Source of the DNA: a virus
Length of the DNA stretch: 5,686 nt
IMG/VR virus record: IMGVR_UViG_3300045988_001141
Location: 1-5,686 of that record
Direction: 5' to 3' (one strand)
Made by a program: the position numbers and the translations under genes. A model generated the notes under the pieces. It was given only the letters and a program-made list of their open reading frames with translations, ran no database searches and was not told the DNA's origin. Shown here one piece after another: positions 1 to 5,686 of this stretch; within the stretch, counting starts at the first letter, position 1; each line of letters opens with the position of its first letter.

Positions 1-44
1 AGAATCTCAGAGAACGCTTTAGTAAAGCAAGGGGAATTCTCTAA
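1..44 (+). CDS. VP4: Duplicated 3' end of the VP4 gene (fragment only, caused by the terminal overlap)
   Basis: Codons from position 3 read [13 protein letters not shown] followed by TAA at 42-44. This is identical to the C-terminus of the 4619-5641 ORF. Confidence 0.85.
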   Translation, partial: NLRERFSKARGIL

Positions 45-89
45 ATGGTGTCAGTGGGCCTAATCCTATCAAGAAACGATTAGGCCCAC
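1..89. repeat. Terminal direct repeat, copy 1 (circular-genome assembly overlap)
   Basis: A base-by-base comparison shows 1-89 is identical to 5598-5686. The repeat runs to both window edges, as expected for a circle that has been linearised and over-read. Confidence 0.95.
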
Positions 90-100
90 TATTTATTTTC
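53..100 (+). terminator. Perfect 13-bp stem / 12-nt loop hairpin followed by a T-rich tract, a likely intrinsic terminator for the long operon
   Basis: AGTGGGCCTAATC (53-65) pairs perfectly with GATTAGGCCCACT (78-90) around the loop ctatcaagaaac, followed by atttattttc. It starts 9 nt after the VP4 stop codon. Confidence 0.6.
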
Positions 101-116
101 GCTTATTATATATAAC
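91..116. other. AT-rich tract (atttattttcgcttattatatataac)
   Basis: Direct reading shows almost only A and T. The tract lies directly upstream of the repeat and DnaA-box cluster, so a DNA-unwinding-element role is possible but unproven. Confidence 0.35.
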
Positions 117-121
117 TTGTT

Positions 122-137
122 GTAGTAGTAGTAGTAG
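122..137. repeat. Trinucleotide microsatellite (GTA)5 / (TAG)5
   Basis: gtagtagtagtagtag read directly from the sequence. Confidence 0.9.
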
Positions 138-210
138 GGAGTGTTGAAATGTTGAATACTATGAATTTTTATCCTTGGAACGATATTTTATGGATTATTT
201 TGATGTTGAT

Positions 211-234
211 ACTTTTGTGGATAACTTGTTGAAT
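211..234 (+). repeat. ~24-bp direct repeat, copy A (ACTTTTGTGGATAACTTGTTGAAT)
   Basis: It aligns with 274-298 (ACTTTTTGTGGAAAACCTGTTGAAA) with one 1-nt indel and three substitutions. Its 11-mer ATAACTTGTTG also occurs exactly at 112-122. Confidence 0.8.
216..224 (-). promoter_or_regulatory. Exact match to the consensus DnaA box (TTATCCACA on the minus strand)
   Basis: The + strand reads tgtggataa at 216-224, the exact reverse complement of TTATCCACA. Confidence 0.55.
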
Positions 235-253
235 TGTTGAAAGTGTAGCAATA

Positions 254-273
254 TGCACAAAACCATTTGTGCA
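254..273. repeat. Inverted repeat TGCACAAA-acca-TTTGTGCA (operator-like palindrome or hairpin)
   Basis: Two perfectly complementary 8-nt arms with a 4-nt spacer, located between the two DnaA-box repeats. Confidence 0.75.
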
Positions 274-298
274 ACTTTTTGTGGAAAACCTGTTGAAA
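274..298 (+). repeat. ~24-bp direct repeat, copy B
   Basis: See copy A. Confidence 0.8.
280..288 (-). promoter_or_regulatory. DnaA-box match (TTTTCCACA on the minus strand, fits TTWTNCACA)
   Basis: The + strand reads tgtggaaaa at 280-288. It occupies the same position within repeat copy B as the perfect box does in copy A. One-mismatch candidates lie at 251-259 (ATATGCACA, + strand) and 319-327 (TTAATCACA, - strand). Confidence 0.45.
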
Positions 299-333
299 GT
301 GTTGAAAGTGTTGAAAACTGTGATTAAAGACAG

Positions 334-352
334 TCCGGCGAGCGAAACCGGA
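334..352 (+). other. Small GC hairpin (TCCGG-9 nt-CCGGA)
   Basis: 334-338 is complementary to 348-352. It forms part of a GC-rich island inside an otherwise AT-rich spacer. Confidence 0.5.
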
Positions 353-359
353 AAGTCAC

Positions 360-404
360 GTCATGCTCTTCGAACGGCGCACCGCGCCTACCGCATGACC
401 TTTT
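360..404 (+). other. Compound GC-rich hairpin followed by CTTTT, a candidate ssDNA structural signal or terminator
   Basis: The outer stem pairs GTCATGC (360-366) with GCATGAC (393-399). The inner stem pairs GGCGC (376-380) with GCGCC (384-388) around the loop acc. The sequence cTTTT follows at 400-404. Confidence 0.55.
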
Positions 405-425
405 AGATTAAATTGCAAAAAACTA

Positions 426-453
426 TTGACAAATCACAAAAGTGTGGTATAAT
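426..453 (+). promoter_or_regulatory. Promoter P1, a near-perfect sigma70-type promoter with extended -10
   Basis: TTGACA (426-431), a 16-nt spacer, then TGgTATAAT (445-453). An A/T-rich stretch lies upstream (ttttagattaaattgcaaaaaa). Confidence 0.75.
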
Positions 454-480
454 ATAATCAAAGAAAGGCAGGTAATAAAA

Positions 481-678
481 ATGAGGAAGCCTAGACTGAA
501 CGAAAACACCATGACAAAACTCGAAATTTACGGATGCGCAAAATGCGGTAAAAACTACTACGAACTGATAGACTACATCGACGCAGAAGGGAATTACAAC
601 ACAACACTTGAACGGACAGACTTAAGGACCGGAGACATGGATACGTTCGATTGGGAAAAATTCACAAAAGAGGAGTGA
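481..678 (+). CDS. Hypothetical small protein, 65 aa, mildly acidic, with one CxxC
   Basis: This is the 442-678 track ORF, but I place the start at ATG 481. The GTG at 442 sits inside the P1 spacer and -10, upstream of any likely transcription start. A weak RBS (aaggcaggt) precedes 481. I recognise no family. Confidence 0.55.
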   Translation: MRKPRLNENTMTKLEIYGCAKCGKNYYELIDYIDAEGNYNTTLERTDLRTGDMDTFDWEKFTKEE

Positions 679-683
679 AAATC

Positions 684-872
684 ATGAAACACAAATACGA
701 AATCCGAAAACTTGAAAGCGATGGGAAGGTAAACACCATCGAAGAATTTATAAAGGAACCGAAAGACGCAAGAAGAGAAGCAAGGGCATATGCAGAAAGA
801 CACCCGGGCTTATATACACTGTACAGAGTGGACACCATAGAAATCTACTTCACAGAAAAAAAGAGGGCTTGA
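684..872 (+). CDS. Hypothetical small protein, 62 aa (MKHKYEIRKLESDGKVNTIEEF...)
   Basis: This is the 651-872 track ORF. ATG 684 is preferred because AGGAG (671-675) lies 8 nt upstream, and the upstream gene stops at 676-678. The stop TGA 870-872 runs straight into a terminator. I recognise no family. Confidence 0.6.
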   Translation: MKHKYEIRKLESDGKVNTIEEFIKEPKDARREARAYAERHPGLYTLYRVDTIEIYFTEKKRA

Positions 873-887
873 CAGGCCCTTTTTTTT
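864..887 (+). terminator. Intrinsic terminator closing the two-gene cassette
   Basis: The stem pairs AGGGC (864-868) with GCCCT (876-880) around a 7-nt loop, followed by a run of 8 T (880-887). An upstream A-run (855-862) gives it a bidirectional appearance. Confidence 0.7.
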
Positions 888-897
888 ATGATATAAA
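869..897 (+). promoter_or_regulatory. Promoter P2, a sigma70-type promoter with extended -10, overlapping the terminator
   Basis: TTGACA (869-874, in the terminator loop), a 17-nt spacer, then TGaTATAAA (889-897). Confidence 0.65.
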
Positions 898-908
898 GAA
901 AATAGTTG

Positions 909-928
909 AACAGCGAAAGTGCTGTTTT
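909..928 (+). other. Stem-loop in the 5' leader of the predicted P2 transcript
   Basis: AACAGC (909-914) pairs with GCTGTT (921-926) around a 6-nt loop, followed by tt. It begins a few nt after the expected P2 start site and is preceded by an AGTTGAA iteron-like core at 904-910. Confidence 0.45.
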
Positions 929-976
929 ACAAATACCATTTATACAAAATAATCAAAAAGAAAGAGGTGAATTGCT

Positions 977-1099
977 TTGACCTTCAAGGAAATCAACGCG
1001 CTGTTCAGCAACATCCGCAAAATCTTGGCTAAACTGGACAAGATTTATCACATGTTGGAAGACAAGGACAACAGATTCCAGACCTTCAACGGAGACTGA
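977..1099 (+). CDS. Possible TTG-initiated 40-aa ORF (MTFKEINALFSNIRKILAKLDKIYHMLEDKDNRFQTFNGD)
   Basis: AAAGAGGTG (961-969) lies 7 nt upstream of TTG 977. The frame is open to TGA 1097-1099, and an in-frame stop at 968-970 bounds it upstream. The ORF fills an otherwise empty gap of more than 200 nt between P2 and the next gene, and the peptide looks amphipathic and helical. It is not in the supplied track. Confidence 0.3.
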   Translation: MTFKEINALFSNIRKILAKLDKIYHMLEDKDNRFQTFNGD

Positions 1100-1109
1100 G
1101 AGGCCGAAA

Positions 1110-1331
1110 ATGAAAGCGTGGAACGTAAGAGACCAGACCGACAAAACGCTGGCAGAAGTACTTACCAGAACCTACAAGGAAATCGAAACAACGTACAAAC
1201 ATGTATGCAAAGCCGCCACAATCGAAGACGCAAAGTTTTACATCGATATGGCATTCCGGAAAAAAGCTTTCGCAAATGACATAGAGATGGAACAAATCAG
1301 AAGGAGAGTCAACAATGGCGAAGAGGAGTAA
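1110..1331 (+). CDS. Hypothetical protein, 73 aa
   Basis: Track ORF with ATG 1110, preceded by GAGAGG (1098-1103) at 6-nt spacing. It overlaps the next ORF by 17 nt. I recognise no family. Confidence 0.6.
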   Translation: MKAWNVRDQTDKTLAEVLTRTYKEIETTYKHVCKAATIEDAKFYIDMAFRKKAFANDIEMEQIRRRVNNGEEE

Positions 1332-1434
1332 GACCAAAAAGTCAAAAGACACGAAAGTGTTTACCCAGACGGCAAAGAAAACCAAGGCCGTCAACGTAAG
1401 CCCGAAAAACATGCGAGGAGGCACGAGACTGTAA
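1315..1434 (+). CDS. Small highly basic protein, 39 aa (MAKRSKTKKSKDTKVFTQTAKKTKAVNVSPKNMRGGTRL), a candidate J/ORF8-type ssDNA-condensing protein
   Basis: Found by hand because it is below the track cutoff. AGGAG (1302-1306) lies 8 nt upstream of ATG 1315. The protein has 13 K/R against 1 acidic residue. Its TAA stop (1432-1434) overlaps the next start as TAATG. Confidence 0.6.
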   Translation: MAKRSKTKKSKDTKVFTQTAKKTKAVNVSPKNMRGGTRL

Positions 1435-1676
1435 TGCTGAAAAGATACTATGCAATCTATGACAAGGTGGCCAAGAGCTACAGCGGGCTCTTCGAGCAGC
1501 AGAACGACGCAGTCGCAAGCAGACTCTTTGAGAGCCAGCAAAAAAACAAAGAAAGCTTCATCAGCGTGAAGCCGGAAGACTTCCAGCTCCACTACATCTG
1601 CACCATGGAAGACGAAACCGGCGAAATCATCGATAACACCAAAATGCTGGTATGTGAGGGAAAGCCTAATGAGTGA
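1434..1676 (+). CDS. VP5: VP5/ORF5-like non-structural protein, 80 aa
   Basis: The pattern YYAIYDKVAKSYSGLF...A.RLF...PEDFQLHYICTMEDETGEI fits the small gokushovirus protein I recall as Y.VYD.KA..F..PF...A.R.F...PEDF.L...G.FD..TG. Its position just upstream of VP3 is also typical. Confidence 0.6.
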   Translation: MLKRYYAIYDKVAKSYSGLFEQQNDAVASRLFESQQKNKESFISVKPEDFQLHYICTMEDETGEIIDNTKMLVCEGKPNE

Positions 1677-2145
1677 ATTCAGAAGCGCATACAGCGGCCA
1701 AGTAAGGCATACGAGTCTGACCGGTAACGGACATGAACCCGAATACGAGTACAAAGTAACCGAAGCCGGCAGAGAGCTGGTAAAAACCGGCGAAAACGAC
1801 GTCTATGCACTCATTCAGAGCCGTCTGGATGAAACCAAAATCGAAAACATCATCAAAAGAGCAACCTACGACCCGACGACGCTGGGCGACCAGGAATGGC
1901 AGAACAGCGCACAGATGGTGGACATTACCGACGTACCGACGGACTACCACACATGGTACAACCGCATCGAGGACGCAAAGAAGCAGTTTGAAGCCCTGCC
2001 TATCGAAGTCAAAAACAAATGGGATAACGACGTAGAAAAATACATCATGGCCTACGGCACGGCAGAATGGGCCGACAAAATGGGCCTTCTGAAAGAAGAA
2101 AAGCCGACTGAAAACACGACAGAGAAAAAGGAGGCAGCAGAGTGA
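1669..2145 (+). CDS. VP3: Internal scaffolding protein VP3-like, 158 aa from ATG 1669
   Basis: This is the 1654-2145 track ORF. ATG 1669 is preferred because GAGGGA (1657-1662) lies upstream and it forms an ATGAGTGA overlap with the VP5 stop. The acidic protein of about 160 aa directly precedes VP1, and ...DVYALIQSRLDE...AKKQFEALPIEVKNKWDND... resembles gokushovirus VP3. The alternative start is GTG 1654. Confidence 0.65.
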   Translation: MSEFRSAYSGQVRHTSLTGNGHEPEYEYKVTEAGRELVKTGENDVYALIQSRLDETKIENIIKRATYDPTTLGDQEWQNSAQMVDITDVPTDYHTWYNRIEDAKKQFEALPIEVKNKWDNDVEKYIMAYGTAEWADKMGLLKEEKPTENTTEKKEAAE

Positions 2146-3770
2146 ACCGCAACAGTGAATACAGCTTTGCACAGAATCCACAGGTGGGAGTAAGTCGAAG
2201 CCGCTTCCAGCGGAACAACGACAACAAAACCACCTTCAACACCGGCGACCTCATCCCGATTTATCTGGATGAGGTATTACCCGGAGATACGCACGAAATC
2301 GACATGGCCTGTGTCATGCGTATGGCAACGCCTATCTTTCCCGTGATGGACAATGCCTTCTGCGACTTCTACTTCTTCTTCGTGCCGAACAGACTTCTGT
2401 GGGAGCACTGGAAGGAGTTTATGGGCGAAAACAAAGAAACCGCATGGACGCCTAAAGCAGAGTACAGTATCCCGCAGGTCACAGCACCGGCAGAAGGCTG
2501 GGCAGAAGGAACTTTGGCAGACTATCTTGGTCTGCCTACCAAAGTAAAGGGCATAAGCGTGAGCGCTCTGCCGGGACGAGCATACGGCCTCATCTACAAC
2601 GAATGGTTCCGGAACCAAAACGTGACGCAACCGACACTTGTAGAGGTGACGGACGCAACCACAACCGGCAAAAACGACGGTAGCAAAACCAACGACAGCG
2701 CAATCACGCTGGCAAAGCCTCTCAAAGCGGCAAAGGTGTTTGACTACTACACCGGAGCATTACCCGAACCTCAGAAAGGTGAACCTATTACGTTGCCTCT
2801 GAGCGGAAATGCAGCAATATTCATGTACAAAGACGATACGCTCAAAACCAAAGGAACTTTAAACAACAAAGAAGCACTGTTCCTTCAGGGCGGTTCCGGA
2901 GCACAAGGCCAACTCTACAACAATGAAAAAGCTCTGGCAGTAATGGGAGCAACAGCGTCTGGGGGAACAACCGCAGACGGCGCATACTTGGGAGCAGACC
3001 TGACGACGATAAATGCCGCAACCATCAATCAGCTCCGACAGGCATTCCAGATTCAGAAGCTGTTGGAAAAAGACGCACGTGGCGGCACGAGATACCGCGA
3101 AGTGCTGAGGGAGCACTTTGGAGTTATCTCGCCCGACAGCCGGATGCAAATTCCGGAGTATCTGGGCGGCTACAGACTGCCTATCAACGTGTCTCAGGTT
3201 ATCCAGACCTCTTCGACCGACAACACGAGTCCGCTGGGCAATACGGCGGCGCTGAGTGTGACCACGATGAACAAATCTATGTTTACCAAGTCCTTTACAG
3301 AACACGGCTTTATCATGGGACTCGCAGTGGTACGAACCGACCAGACCTATCAGCAGGGCATCGAACGCATGTGGAGCCGCACCGGACGATATGACTACTA
3401 CTGGCCGGTACTGGCAAACATCGGCGAACAAGCTATTCTCAACAAAGAAATCTATGCACAGGGCAACGAAAAGGACAACGAGGCATTCGGCTATCAGGAA
3501 GCATGGGCCGACTATCGGTATAAGCCGAGCAAGGTTACCGGCCTGTTCCGAAGCAACGCACAACAGAGTCTCGATGCATGGCACTATGCACAGGACTACA
3601 ACGCACTGCCCACTCTGAGTACCGATTGGATGCAACAGGGCGAAGCGGAGATGAAGAGAACTCTCGCAGTACAGTCTCAGCCGGACTTTATTGCAGACTT
3701 CTACTTCATGAACAAAACAACGCGGTGTATGCCGGTGTACTCCATTCCGGGACTCATCGACCATCACTAA
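2142..3770 (+). CDS. VP1: Major capsid protein VP1 (F-like), 542 aa, GTG start
   Basis: AGGAGG (2129-2134) lies 7 nt upstream of GTG 2142, which forms a GTGA overlap with the VP3 stop. Conserved blocks are present: KTTFNTGDLIPIYLDEVLPGDT, RAYGLIYNEWFRNQN, DYYTGALPEPQKG and DARGGTRYREVLREHFGVISPDSRMQIPEYLGG. Confidence 0.93.
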   Translation: MNRNSEYSFAQNPQVGVSRSRFQRNNDNKTTFNTGDLIPIYLDEVLPGDTHEIDMACVMRMATPIFPVMDNAFCDFYFFFVPNRLLWEHWKEFMGENKETAWTPKAEYSIPQVTAPAEGWAEGTLADYLGLPTKVKGISVSALPGRAYGLIYNEWFRNQNVTQPTLVEVTDATTTGKNDGSKTNDSAITLAKPLKAAKVFDYYTGALPEPQKGEPITLPLSGNAAIFMYKDDTLKTKGTLNNKEALFLQGGSGAQGQLYNNEKALAVMGATASGGTTADGAYLGADLTTINAATINQLRQAFQIQKLLEKDARGGTRYREVLREHFGVISPDSRMQIPEYLGGYRLPINVSQVIQTSSTDNTSPLGNTAALSVTTMNKSMFTKSFTEHGFIMGLAVVRTDQTYQQGIERMWSRTGRYDYYWPVLANIGEQAILNKEIYAQGNEKDNEAFGYQEAWADYRYKPSKVTGLFRSNAQQSLDAWHYAQDYNALPTLSTDWMQQGEAEMKRTLAVQSQPDFIADFYFMNKTTRCMPVYSIPGLIDHH

Positions 3771-3775
3771 CACAA

Positions 3776-3795
3776 AGCCGGGTCAAAACCCGGCT
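3776..3795 (+). other. Hairpin between VP1 and VP2 (AGCCGGGT-caaa-ACCCGGCT)
   Basis: A perfect 8-bp stem starts 6 nt after the VP1 stop. It is followed by attctt rather than a strong U-run, so at most it is a leaky terminator or an mRNA-stabilising element. Confidence 0.5.
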
Positions 3796-3815
3796 ATTCT
3801 TGTAAAGGAGAAAAA

Positions 3816-4622
3816 ATGTCATTTTTAGCAGCACTAGCAACAGGCGCAAAATTACTAGGCGGCGTGAGCACGCTCGTAAACGCAGGCACAGGCATCTACA
3901 ACGCGCTTAAAGGCACATCGGGAAGCGGATCATCAGCAGCAGACAGCTACAACGAAATGCACAGTCAAGGCGGGTCAACCATGACCAGCGAAAGTGGCGT
4001 CAATATGGGACAGACGCAAGACCTTGCAAAATACTTCCTTGGGCAAAGCCAGCAAGCACAGGGAATGCAGAGCCTTCAAAACAACAAAAACTCGCTCATG
4101 GCTCTGGGCTTAAACACTCTGGGGGCAATTCAGCAGGGCGTTTATAACCGCATCCAGCAAGACGCGGCAATGTCCTTCAATTCGGCAGAGGCAGCAGCAA
4201 ACAGAGCATGGCAAGAAAGAATGAGCAACACAAGCTATCAGAGGGCTATGGCAGACATGAAAGCGGCGGGGCTTAATCCTATACTTGCCTACGCACAAGG
4301 CGGCGCAAGCACGCCCGCAGGCGCACATGCGTCGATTGGACAAAGCTCCATCAACGCACCGAGCGTGGGAACGCAAGCGTCAACCATGCCAACAATCTCT
4401 GGTTCGATAGCAAACTACAGCAAAACCAAGGCAGAGAGTTGGAACTGGACAGACTCGAAAGGCGAAATGCACAGCAGCGGCTATAACAGCTTTCAAACAG
4501 ATTTTCCGGACTTAACCGGATGGCTCAACCAAAACAACAACAGCGGCAAAAGCACAGCAGCTGGAGGCGGCAAAAAAGATAAACAGGGCTTCGGCGGCAG
4601 CAAGGGAGGCAGTTTTAAATGA
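3816..4622 (+). CDS. VP2: Minor capsid / DNA pilot protein VP2, 268 aa
   Basis: AAAGGAG is upstream of ATG 3816. The protein is Gly/Ser/Ala/Gln-rich and contains [29 protein letters not shown], the block I recognise as the conserved core of microvirus VP2/H-like proteins. Confidence 0.88.
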
Positions 4623-5641
4623 GCTGTGAAAGACCACTTATCAGAGTATACAACCCAAACGACCATAACATAACAGGGTCAATCATGACCCTAGAAAAAT
4701 ACAGAGAAAGAGCGCATAATCCAGCGGCAACATACGAAAGCCTAGCATATAGAAAAGACGTCATGCTACTACCATGCGGCAAGTGTCTGGGATGCAGACT
4801 CAGACAGCGACAAGACTGGGAAACCAGAATGTTGATGGAGTCAAAAACACTCACACCAGCATGGTTTTTCACTCTTACGTGGAATCAAGAATATGTGCCG
4901 GGAATGATAAGAGCAACAGGCGAACTTATACGTGGAGCAGTACACCAGTGGACAACGGGAGACGCGCCAGAAGTTGTGCAAATCCTATTGCAAGAGGACA
5001 TGGTACTTTTTAACAAGAGGCTTCGAAAAAAACAAGAAATGTCCGATAAATGGGGTACAGACCTCAGATATTTTTATTGCGGCGAATACGGCGAAACCAC
5101 AGGAAGACCGCATCACCACGCAATCTATTATGGGTTAGAAATACCAGACCTCAAGAAAAAAAGAGGCAATAATCCATACTTTGAAAGCGAAACAATAGAC
5201 AACATCTGGGGAATGGGCAATGTAATAATTGCAGAGGCGTCACCAGAAACAATGGCGTATGTAGCGGGATATGTGACAAAAAAAGCCTACGGCAACGACA
5301 CAAAACGATACAATGAGCTAGGGCTACCAGCGCCTTACTGCTGCATGTCGCGAAATCCGGGTCTAGGATACGACTACTACCAAGAGCACAAAGAGCAAAT
5401 GTACAAAGACGATGGGCTATATTTTAACGGCAAAAAAAGACCCATTCCAAGGTACTTTGACAAGATGCAAGAAGCTGAGAATCCCAAAAGGCTATGGGAA
5501 GTCAAAGAAAAGAGGCAGTCAAGCGCAATAAATGCACTTAAAGTAAAAATGTCAAACACAGACGTGACCATAGAACAGCAAGGCAAAATCAAAGAAAAGA
5601 ATCTCAGAGAACGCTTTAGTAAAGCAAGGGGAATTCTCTAA
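4619..5641 (+). CDS. VP4: Rolling-circle replication initiator VP4 (HUH endonuclease), 340 aa
   Basis: ATGA overlap with the VP2 stop. [15 protein letters not shown] is the Cys cluster typical of VP4. Motif 1 is FFTLTW (4865-4882), the HUH motif is PHHHAIYY (HHH at 5111-5119), and the catalytic Tyr motif is YVAGYVTKK (5258-5284). Confidence 0.92.
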
Positions 5642-5686
5642 ATGGTGTCAGTGGGCCTAATCCTATCAAGAAACGATTAGGCCCAC
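5598..5686. repeat. Terminal direct repeat, copy 2
   Basis: Identical to 1-89. Confidence 0.95.
5650..5686 (+). terminator. Second copy of the post-VP4 hairpin, cut off by the window end
   Basis: Same sequence as 53-89. The window ends one base before the last stem pair. Confidence 0.6.

Follow-up and report, generated by a model that had tools for sequence, protein, structure and literature searches.

A conserved expression slot with exchanged small genes, some of the AcrIC5 anti-CRISPR family, in gut gokushoviruses

The IMG/VR virus record IMGVR_UViG_3300045988_001141 was analysed over positions 1 to 5,686, the whole stretch that we call the window. Its first 89 bases repeat its last 89, so that the window is a complete circular gokushovirus genome of 5,597 nucleotides (nt). 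Between the gene for the replication initiator VP4, with the non-coding region that accompanies it, and the VP8/VP5/VP3/VP1 genes, positions 426-897 hold a promoter (P1), a leader, two small open reading frames (ORF1 and ORF2), a hairpin of the intrinsic-terminator type and a second promoter (P2; Table 1). An initial annotation of this DNA had described a self-contained two-gene cassette of orphan proteins, organised like a moron. The comparative analysis presented here indicates that the unit is real and is more than a lone moron: it is an instance of a conserved, recombination-friendly accessory slot, which sometimes carries anti-CRISPR (Acr) genes. That 426-897 is one copy of a conserved expression slot of gut gokushoviruses, with the architecture set out below, is well supported at the level of sequence and comparison.

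P1 is the only site in the window that matches the sigma-70 consensus at 12 of 12 positions, with the TG of an extended -10 in addition, whereas chance alone would yield about 0.002 such 12/12 matches (3 spacings x 11,372 positions x 4^-12). An A-rich tract lies immediately upstream (414-425), and transcription probably starts near 460. The window's proteins, promoter-like sites and hairpins were mapped onto about 40 related loci, and in most of these a near-consensus promoter stands ~55 nt 5' of the small ORF that comes first beyond the non-coding region, whichever gene that is. Three unrelated first genes, of the ORF1, ORF2 and c70 (70 amino acids, aa) types, are preceded by an almost unchanged promoter, upstream A-tract and leader (ATAATCAnAGAAAGGnAGG...ATG; alignment A6), and at the level of sequence this conservation in relatives confirms the consensus promoter first annotated here. 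Two longer alternative starts, GTG442 and TTG651, were rejected since every homologue of the ORFs begins at ATG, and GTG442 moreover lies upstream of the expected start of transcription.

At the other end of the unit, the hairpin folds as RNA with -15.9 kcal/mol (z = -4.6; none of 200 shuffled sequences folds as well), and its stem co-varies among 21 sequences, with 94.6% of cells paired, double changes in four of the eight pairs and none of 500 shuffles reaching the score. The GC stem with T8 terminator that had been proposed directly after ORF2 is therefore borne out. The scanner had reported the hairpin on the minus strand alone, since in the plus-strand fold the T-run is taken up in pairing with the A-tract. 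In most of the ~40 loci, the hairpin follows the last small ORF as GAGGC-TTGACA-(A)GCCTC and is succeeded by a run of 7-12 T. P2 matches the consensus at 11 of 12 positions and was missed by the promoter scanner, which demands a T at position 6 of the -10 element; its -35 and a TAnnnT -10 are conserved (alignment A4). The stop codon of ORF2 (TGA, 870-872) lies inside the TTGACA hexamer, which belongs half to the hairpin stem and half to the loop and is also the -35 of P2. Whether ORF1, ORF2 or an unrelated 56-aa gene comes last, the final codons of the cargo supply the 5' arm of the stem and the stop lies within the -35. The terminator and the promoter that restarts the morphogenesis operon appear to be one element, and because the terminator overlaps P2 the unit would be coupled to the downstream operon and not simply insulated from it. 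The unit initially called transcriptionally insulated is thus a discrete one that runs from promoter to terminator, but its insulation was overstated. Just after P2 there is a second hairpin (AACAGCGAAAGTGCTGTT, 909-926), placed within a conserved motif (AGTTRAACAGCRC) that is present in most relatives. In the relative KT264799 (L037), a hydrophobic ORF of 24 codons (MVDVIQSIAIMLLSIAVIINAKRR, 3973-4047) lies directly 3' of P2 and could encode a small membrane peptide.

ORF1 and ORF2 are real genes under purifying selection: the pairwise ratios of non-synonymous to synonymous substitution rates (dN/dS) are 0.31 and 0.23, respectively, compared with 0.95 and 0.80 in the +1 frame of the same DNA. 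They encode 65 and 62 aa and are 5 nt apart, as first annotated. Both proteins are strongly hydrophilic and have neither a transmembrane segment nor a signal sequence, and they differ in charge, ORF1 being acidic (isoelectric point, pI, 4.8) and ORF2 basic (pI 9.3; grand average of hydropathy, GRAVY, -1.13), with an Arg/Lys-rich helix at residues 26-39. The AlphaFold2 model of ORF1 (pLDDT 89.7) has the order alpha-beta4-alpha, that is a helix, four strands and a helix, and that of ORF2 (pLDDT 86) the order beta-beta-alpha-beta, followed by a conserved, low-confidence, strand-like C-terminal tail. A resemblance between AEGNYNTTLE and SDGKVNTIEE, once taken as a hint of duplication or of a shared fold, is due to chance, given the different predicted topologies and an hhalign probability of 0.1%. 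Likewise rejected were a zinc finger in ORF1, whose CxxC (C19, C22) is not conserved, with Q/Y and S as substitutes in homologues, and the HicA/HicB, RelE and double-stranded RNA-binding domain (dsRBD)-like folds that the order of strands and helices brings to mind, for which the best Foldseek PDB match of either model has E = 0.18.

The description of both proteins as orphans has withstood profile and structure searches, with no match to either in Pfam, PHROGs, NCBIfam, PADLOC, PDB sequences or Foldseek PDB. A search of BFVD with ORF1 alone returned only its own uncharacterised microvirus homologue. Neither protein resembles a described microvirus protein, structural ones included (VP1-VP5, VP8 and phiX174 A*-K, in Pfam and PHROGs), and a search of 185,579 representative genomes of bacteria and archaea recovered neither, as far as its seeding by patterns allows. 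Their homologues are mostly on contigs of microvirus size or on shorter fragments, judging from the longest contigs listed for them. Single-sequence searches gave 56 homologue clusters for ORF1 and 14 for ORF2, and a profile search extended the latter to 541 clusters. An exhaustive HMMER search of 1.84 billion representative proteins found just 11 ORF1-like clusters, one of which (P0179, 2,647 aa) is spurious, being the sum of at least 20 weak matches, each of at most 9 bits, to a tail-fibre repeat. The N-terminus of ORF1, MRKPRLNENT, is nearly invariant among homologues. In several relatives that are otherwise intact (L010, at 3001, L015, L143 and L151), an Ile codon takes the place of the ORF1 start codon (IRKPRLN...), which suggests either a non-canonical start or a recent inactivation. 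More distant ORF1-like proteins (L195 = CECA01022439.1, L194, L036/L038) share the N-terminal pattern M-R/K-x-x-R-L/F...KYYYE (hhalign E 1e-4 to 4e-4); the gene lies after an ORF2-like 53-aa gene in L195 and adjoins ORF1 itself in L194.

The frame of the slot, with promoter, leader and ATG on one side and TGA, hairpin and P2 on the other, is conserved in dozens of gut gokushoviruses, and at least seven unrelated families of small proteins occupy the space between these same flanking elements. ORF1 and ORF2 are found each alone, in the order ORF2-ORF1 (L005, L009) and in the order ORF1-ORF2, which the window shares with near-identical copies in at least five human-gut samples. The exact ORF2 protein, again behind ORF1, recurs in at least five independent human-gut assemblies. 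Further arrangements combine ORF1 with a 56-aa gene (c56), c70 with c56, and c70 with a 65-aa gene (c65b), or hold a Cys-rich 58-aa protein or a 59/60-aa family. For a wider census, the leader was used as a DNA probe, which retrieved 40 contigs from IMG/VR, nearly all of them microviruses, and in a relaxed form 49 stretches from a metagenome collection, of which most are microviral. The first gene behind the leader belongs to the ORF2 family in 23 of the IMG/VR contigs, to ORF1 in 10 and to the 59/60-aa family in three; among the metagenome stretches the corresponding counts are 18, nine and five. Apart from an AcrIC5-like protein described below, the other cargo families gave no significant match in Pfam, PHROGs, NCBIfam or PADLOC. 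A weak C-terminal resemblance of the 59/60-aa family to ORF2 (E = 0.009, probability 4.6%) does not establish it as a distant relative.

Cargo and backbone have separate histories. The genome L036 has a VP4 99% identical to that of the window and no cargo gene in common with it, and L006 has an ORF1 90% identical to the window's despite a VP4 of only 45% identity. In L005, the closest relative by capsid (VP1 96% identical), ORF1 is 89% identical, whereas ORF2 is just 53% identical and stands on the opposite side of ORF1, which means that each genome acquired its ORF2 independently. In KT264789 (L004) and L025 only a C-terminal stub of ORF1 is left, and other samples have it with internal deletions or frameshifts (remnants and deletions including P0181-P0184). 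Such disruption in otherwise intact relatives had been named beforehand as evidence against the cassette. It does occur, and because it is accompanied by strong purifying selection elsewhere it indicates that ORF1 and ORF2 are dispensable, mobile accessory cargo and not that they are non-functional. These comparisons agree with the moron-like character first suggested, since the cargo differs between close relatives, but not with a fixed two-gene cassette: both genes are present here as independent items and not as an obligate pair.

In three other gokushoviruses (L037, L062 and L063) a gene of the AcrIC5 family is found at the slot. AcrIC5 blocks type I-C CRISPR-Cas, has orthologues in Proteobacteria, Firmicutes and Actinobacteria and is common in phages (PMC7913775); the protein, small and acidic, is thought to obstruct the DNA-binding site of Cascade (PMC10478522; bioRxiv 10.1101/2025.06.06.658234). 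KT264799, whose VP4 and VP1 are 86% and 84% identical to those of the window, has a 66-aa gene between an ORF2 remnant and the conserved hairpin with P2, and its product scores 74.8 bits against the Pfam AcrIC5 family (the cut-off being 27) and matches crystallised AcrIC5 (7YHR) with E = 6.7e-9. L063, of a different gokushovirus lineage, presents VP4, a short non-coding region, a 12/12 promoter (TTGACA-17-TGTATAAT), an AcrIC5 homologue (91.9 bits), a hairpin followed by T13, and VP8, in this order. Its relative L062 also has a 12/12 promoter and an AcrIC5 homologue after VP4, and the locus ends just past that gene. Another microvirus, MG945373, carries an AcrIC5 homologue between VP2 and VP4, and relatives are otherwise frequent in tailed phages of the gut, IMG/VR having 181 such loci. 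CRISPR is known to target gut Microviridae (PMC8530359), and our literature search found no report of anti-CRISPR genes in gokushoviruses, although one may exist. The initial suggestion that such small phage proteins are often anti-defence factors gains real support from the AcrIC5-family genes at the same slot, but it has none from homology of ORF1 or ORF2 themselves to anti-defence proteins.

We favour the reading that this segment is a moron-like, exchangeable counter-defence slot, and consider it an even call that this is correct as a whole. After the incoming single strand has been converted to the double-stranded replicative form, host RNA polymerase would start at P1 and make a transcript of the short leader and the slot genes, which in the window are ORF1 and ORF2 with a separate ribosome-binding site (RBS) for each. 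Much of this transcription would halt at the hairpin and U-tract, near 887, and P2, with its -35 in the hairpin and the T-run as its spacer, would immediately restart transcription of the downstream operon. Because both flanks are conserved, they could act as homology arms through which co-infecting phages swap cargo genes by recombination. The acidic ORF1 and the basic ORF2 would then be unrelated small proteins, made early and abundantly, that neutralise a host defence or a competing phage. The ends of the transcript, the efficiency of the terminator and the mechanism of recombination in this scheme are what we infer from the sequence. Loci of acr genes are built in this way, with a very strong promoter and tiny, unrelated proteins that replace one another rapidly, which makes ORF1 and ORF2 candidates for counter-defence; an anti-defence function, argued from their position and not from similarity, seems to us plausible, with a chance that is even at best. 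More tentative is the proposal that the slot is a dedicated plug-and-play counter-defence locus, with the frame as recombination arms and AcrIC5 shared with tailed phages, in which ORF1 and ORF2 would represent two new anti-CRISPR or anti-defence families; this we would sooner expect to fail than to hold.

Several observations weigh against a counter-defence slot. ORF1 and ORF2 have no similarity to known anti-defence proteins in Pfam (Acr families included), PDB sequences or Foldseek PDB, or, for ORF1 only, BFVD, and neither was found beside AcrIC5-like genes in 80 loci, mostly of tailed phages. There is no helix-turn-helix gene of the anti-CRISPR-associated (aca) type in the slot, and the cargo has no Pfam DNA-binding domain. 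The link to Acr proteins comes from three genomes, one of which, KT264799, lacks P1 through a deletion or an assembly error, and no close relatives of its Acr gene with an intact P1 were found in IMG/VR or in the metagenome collection. Finally, the ORF2 family is first behind P1 so widely (23 of 40 and 18 of 49) that it looks more like a routine phage function than like cargo of an arms race, and this wide conservation is seen in the clade that carries a peptidase M15 gene.

The slot resembles the morons of tailed temperate phages, such as HK97 gene 15, which possess a promoter and a terminator of their own, lie between conserved genes, spread horizontally and are dispensable (PMC3594210). Its G+C content is ~0.40, against ~0.50 in VP5-VP1, which may be a further likeness to morons, but the whole of 1-1300 is low in G+C. 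In contrast to morons, it occupies a fixed position in a 5.6-kb single-stranded DNA (ssDNA) microvirus, its promoter, leader and terminator belong to the backbone and not to the insert, its terminator doubles as the next promoter, and the window genome gives no evidence of an integrase, of lysogeny or of expression from a prophage. With acr operons it shares very small, fast-evolving and unrelated proteins behind a very strong promoter, families that replace each other at one locus, and a bona fide Acr family in the slot of relatives; it differs in having no aca repressor gene, and ORF1 and ORF2 are unlike any described Acr. AcrIC5 itself (PF22147; PDB 7YHR) has about 60 aa, the same position in KT264799 and L063 and the same place behind the promoter in L062, and is acidic, as is ORF1. 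However, it is not homologous to ORF1 or ORF2, whose models are rich in beta structure, whereas AcrIC5 looks helical from its sequence pattern.

Among microviruses, phiX174 grades the expression of its one-strand genome by a few constitutive sigma-70 promoters (PA, PB and PD) and leaky intrinsic terminators. The slot follows the same plan of sigma-70 promoters and intrinsic terminators on one strand, except that here a promoter-terminator pair is dedicated to exchangeable accessory cargo, for which we know of no phiX174 equivalent. Temperate enterogokushoviruses have a superinfection-exclusion segment inside a structural protein, the hypervariable region of VP2. Both that region and the slot are fast-changing gokushovirus modules related to conflict, but the slot consists of small genes that stand on their own and form a transcription unit apart.

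Competition between phages or benefit to the host, by superinfection exclusion or as lysogenic-conversion morons, is an unlikely but not negligible alternative to inhibition of immunity. In the work of Kirchberger and co-workers from 2021, temperate microviruses are said to exclude competitors via the hypervariable region of the pilot protein. The anatomy of promoter, genes and terminator and the horizontal spread fit the definition of morons (PMC3594210), as may the lower G+C content. One relative (L042) may also be integrated in a bacterial contig. Yet most known exclusion proteins that block injection are membrane proteins, and both ORF1 and ORF2 lack any transmembrane segment or signal sequence. 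PADLOC gave no match, the absence of both genes from the 185,579 representative genomes leaves no sign of carriage by prophages, and the slot demonstrably holds an anti-CRISPR family elsewhere.

It is improbable that ORF1 or ORF2, or both, serve the phage itself as regulators or as accessory factors of replication, which might bind the iterons or palindromes or control P1 and P2. The genes do adjoin the conserved non-coding region, ORF2 is basic with its Arg/Lys-rich helix, and its family very commonly comes first behind P1. The two proteins had also been put forward initially as the nearest candidates for binding the iteron and palindrome array, which now appears unlikely, as the non-coding region stays conserved whatever the cargo: it is ~90% identical in genomes with ORF1 only (L001, L006), with ORF2 only (L002) or with a mere remnant of ORF1 (L004), and still 81% identical in one with neither gene (L003). 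Both iteron types co-occur with both genes, complete relatives dispense with the genes altogether, ORF1 is acidic, and Foldseek recognised no helix-turn-helix, ribbon-helix-helix or other DNA-binding fold.

The hairpin, too, can be read differently, as an element that works mainly in packaged ssDNA, for example as a signal for complementary-strand priming, and not as an RNA terminator. The virion strand is the coding strand, so that the hairpin forms in DNA as well, and co-variation does not distinguish DNA from RNA structure. Its anatomy is nevertheless that of a canonical intrinsic terminator, with a G+C-rich stem directly after the stop codon and a run of 7 to 12 T, and the more distant L029-L032 and L035 keep a P2-like promoter without such a hairpin, so that we regard a role mainly in ssDNA as quite improbable.

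A part for ORF2 in lysis is very improbable. An ORF2 gene directly followed by one for a peptidase M15 of 127-131 aa, a putative endolysin, is the commonest arrangement of the census and marks a large sister clade (L029-L032, L035, L042-L047 and numerous other loci of the census). No lysis gene is known for gokushoviruses, such peptidases have been reported in them before, and ORFs of unassigned function adjoin the microviral M15 peptidases (Roux et al., PMC3394797). However, ORF2 is strongly hydrophilic and has no transmembrane segment, the window and many relatives hold ORF2 without any peptidase, and in the M15-clade loci examined (L029, L031, L032, L035) a promoter-like site separates the two genes.

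Least probable of all is a toxin-antitoxin-like or other obligate pair, for which small size, a 5-nt gap, opposite charge, co-occurrence in both orders (window; L005, L009) and a distant ORF2-like and ORF1-like pair in L195 (where the ORF2 likeness is one of sequence pattern only) could be adduced, since most genomes hold just one of the two genes, each is under similar purifying selection when alone, and neither resembles a toxin or antitoxin family in Pfam, PADLOC or Foldseek.

Microviruses are among the most abundant phages of the human gut and, it is thought, can accommodate hardly any accessory genes, and in a global survey their recognisable accessory functions were limited to methyltransferases and lysis-associated genes such as peptidases (PMC9239249). 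If it holds, a counter-defence slot would show how a genome of 5.6 kb takes part in the arms race of defence and counter-defence, and would provide a ready-made discovery tool for anti-defence inhibitors in the smallest known DNA phages. Candidate inhibitors to follow are ORF1, ORF2 and the 56-, 59/60-, 65- and 70-aa families. The compact natural terminator and promoter part may also interest phage engineers.

Table 1. Features of the slot and the conserved gokushovirus genes in the window.
Feature	Position	Strand	Details or basis
Promoter P1	426-453	+	-35 TTGACA 426-431; 16-nt spacer; TG 445-446; TATAAT 448-453 (extended -10 TGgTATAAT 445-453)
Leader with Shine-Dalgarno sequence (ATAATCAAAGAAAGGCAGGTAATAAAA)	454-480	+	Alignment of relatives
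ORF1	481-678	+	ATG481-TGA678; 65 aa; own Shine-Dalgarno sequence
ORF2 Shine-Dalgarno sequence AGAGGAG	669-675	+	Within the final codons of ORF1; visible in the sequence itself
ORF2	684-872	+	ATG684-TGA872; 62 aa; 5 nt after ORF1
Intrinsic-terminator hairpin	857-887	+	Core stem 863-870/874-881; loop 871-873; T8 880-887; starts within the last codons of ORF2
Promoter P2	869-897	+	-35 TTGACA 869-874; 17-nt spacer, mostly T-run; extended -10 TGaTATAAA 889-897; 11/12 match
VP8-like basic peptide	1315-1434		Pfam and PHROGs
VP5	1434-1676		Pfam and PHROGs
VP3 scaffold protein	1669-2145		Pfam and PHROGs
VP1 major capsid protein	2142-3770		Pfam and PHROGs
VP2 pilot protein	3816-4622		Pfam and PHROGs
VP4 replication initiator	4619-5641		Pfam and PHROGs

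The closest GenBank records are gut genomes named 'Gokushovirus WZ-2015a' and 'Microviridae sp.', in all of which the interval of 1-1.4 kb between VP4 and VP5 has no annotation. Because of established promoter and RBS usage, the TTGACA-17-TGnTATAAT type of promoter and the strong GGAGG-type RBS argue against a host among the Bacteroidota and for a Firmicute or a proteobacterium. The M15 peptidases of gokushoviruses are closest to those of Faecalibacterium (Roux et al., PMC3394797). A gut podovirus of the phi29 type, of 13-14 kb (L144 1-80, IMG/VR 3300045988_178820; L221), with a protein-primed polymerase, Gp16 and a phi29 capsid and connector, has a left-end early region that opens with the gokushovirus P1 promoter and leader (TTGACA-17-TATAAT-ATAATCACAGAAAGGAAGG), followed by small ORFs. 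To our knowledge, phages of this type are known only from Firmicutes, and the shared promoter and leader hint at a Firmicute host or at a common early-expression signal. One contig (L042 1-8416; ENA ERZ1310330 NODE_3810) contains a full gokushovirus set, with VP4, ORF2, M15 peptidase, VP5, VP3, VP1 and VP2, between bacterial genes (aroA-like, Crp-like and short-chain dehydrogenase/reductase (SDR) on the left; Jag and YidC on the right), and represents either an integrated prophage or a chimeric assembly. It was not used to assign a host, as its flanks may stem from different organisms.

Two more small conserved genes lie 3' of P2, within 977-1331: o977 (40 aa, with a TTG start) and o1110 (73 aa). 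Relatives without o1110 have a 68-aa protein (MYDRAYYELYKG...) upstream of the o977-like gene, and none of the three proteins matches a family. The segment 1-425 and VP4 of the window look recombinant with respect to each other: VP4 has 99% identity to its counterparts in L007 and L036, whose non-coding region is just 72% identical, and the non-coding region of the window is ~90% identical to that of genomes (L001/L006 comparison) whose VP4 is ~44% identical.

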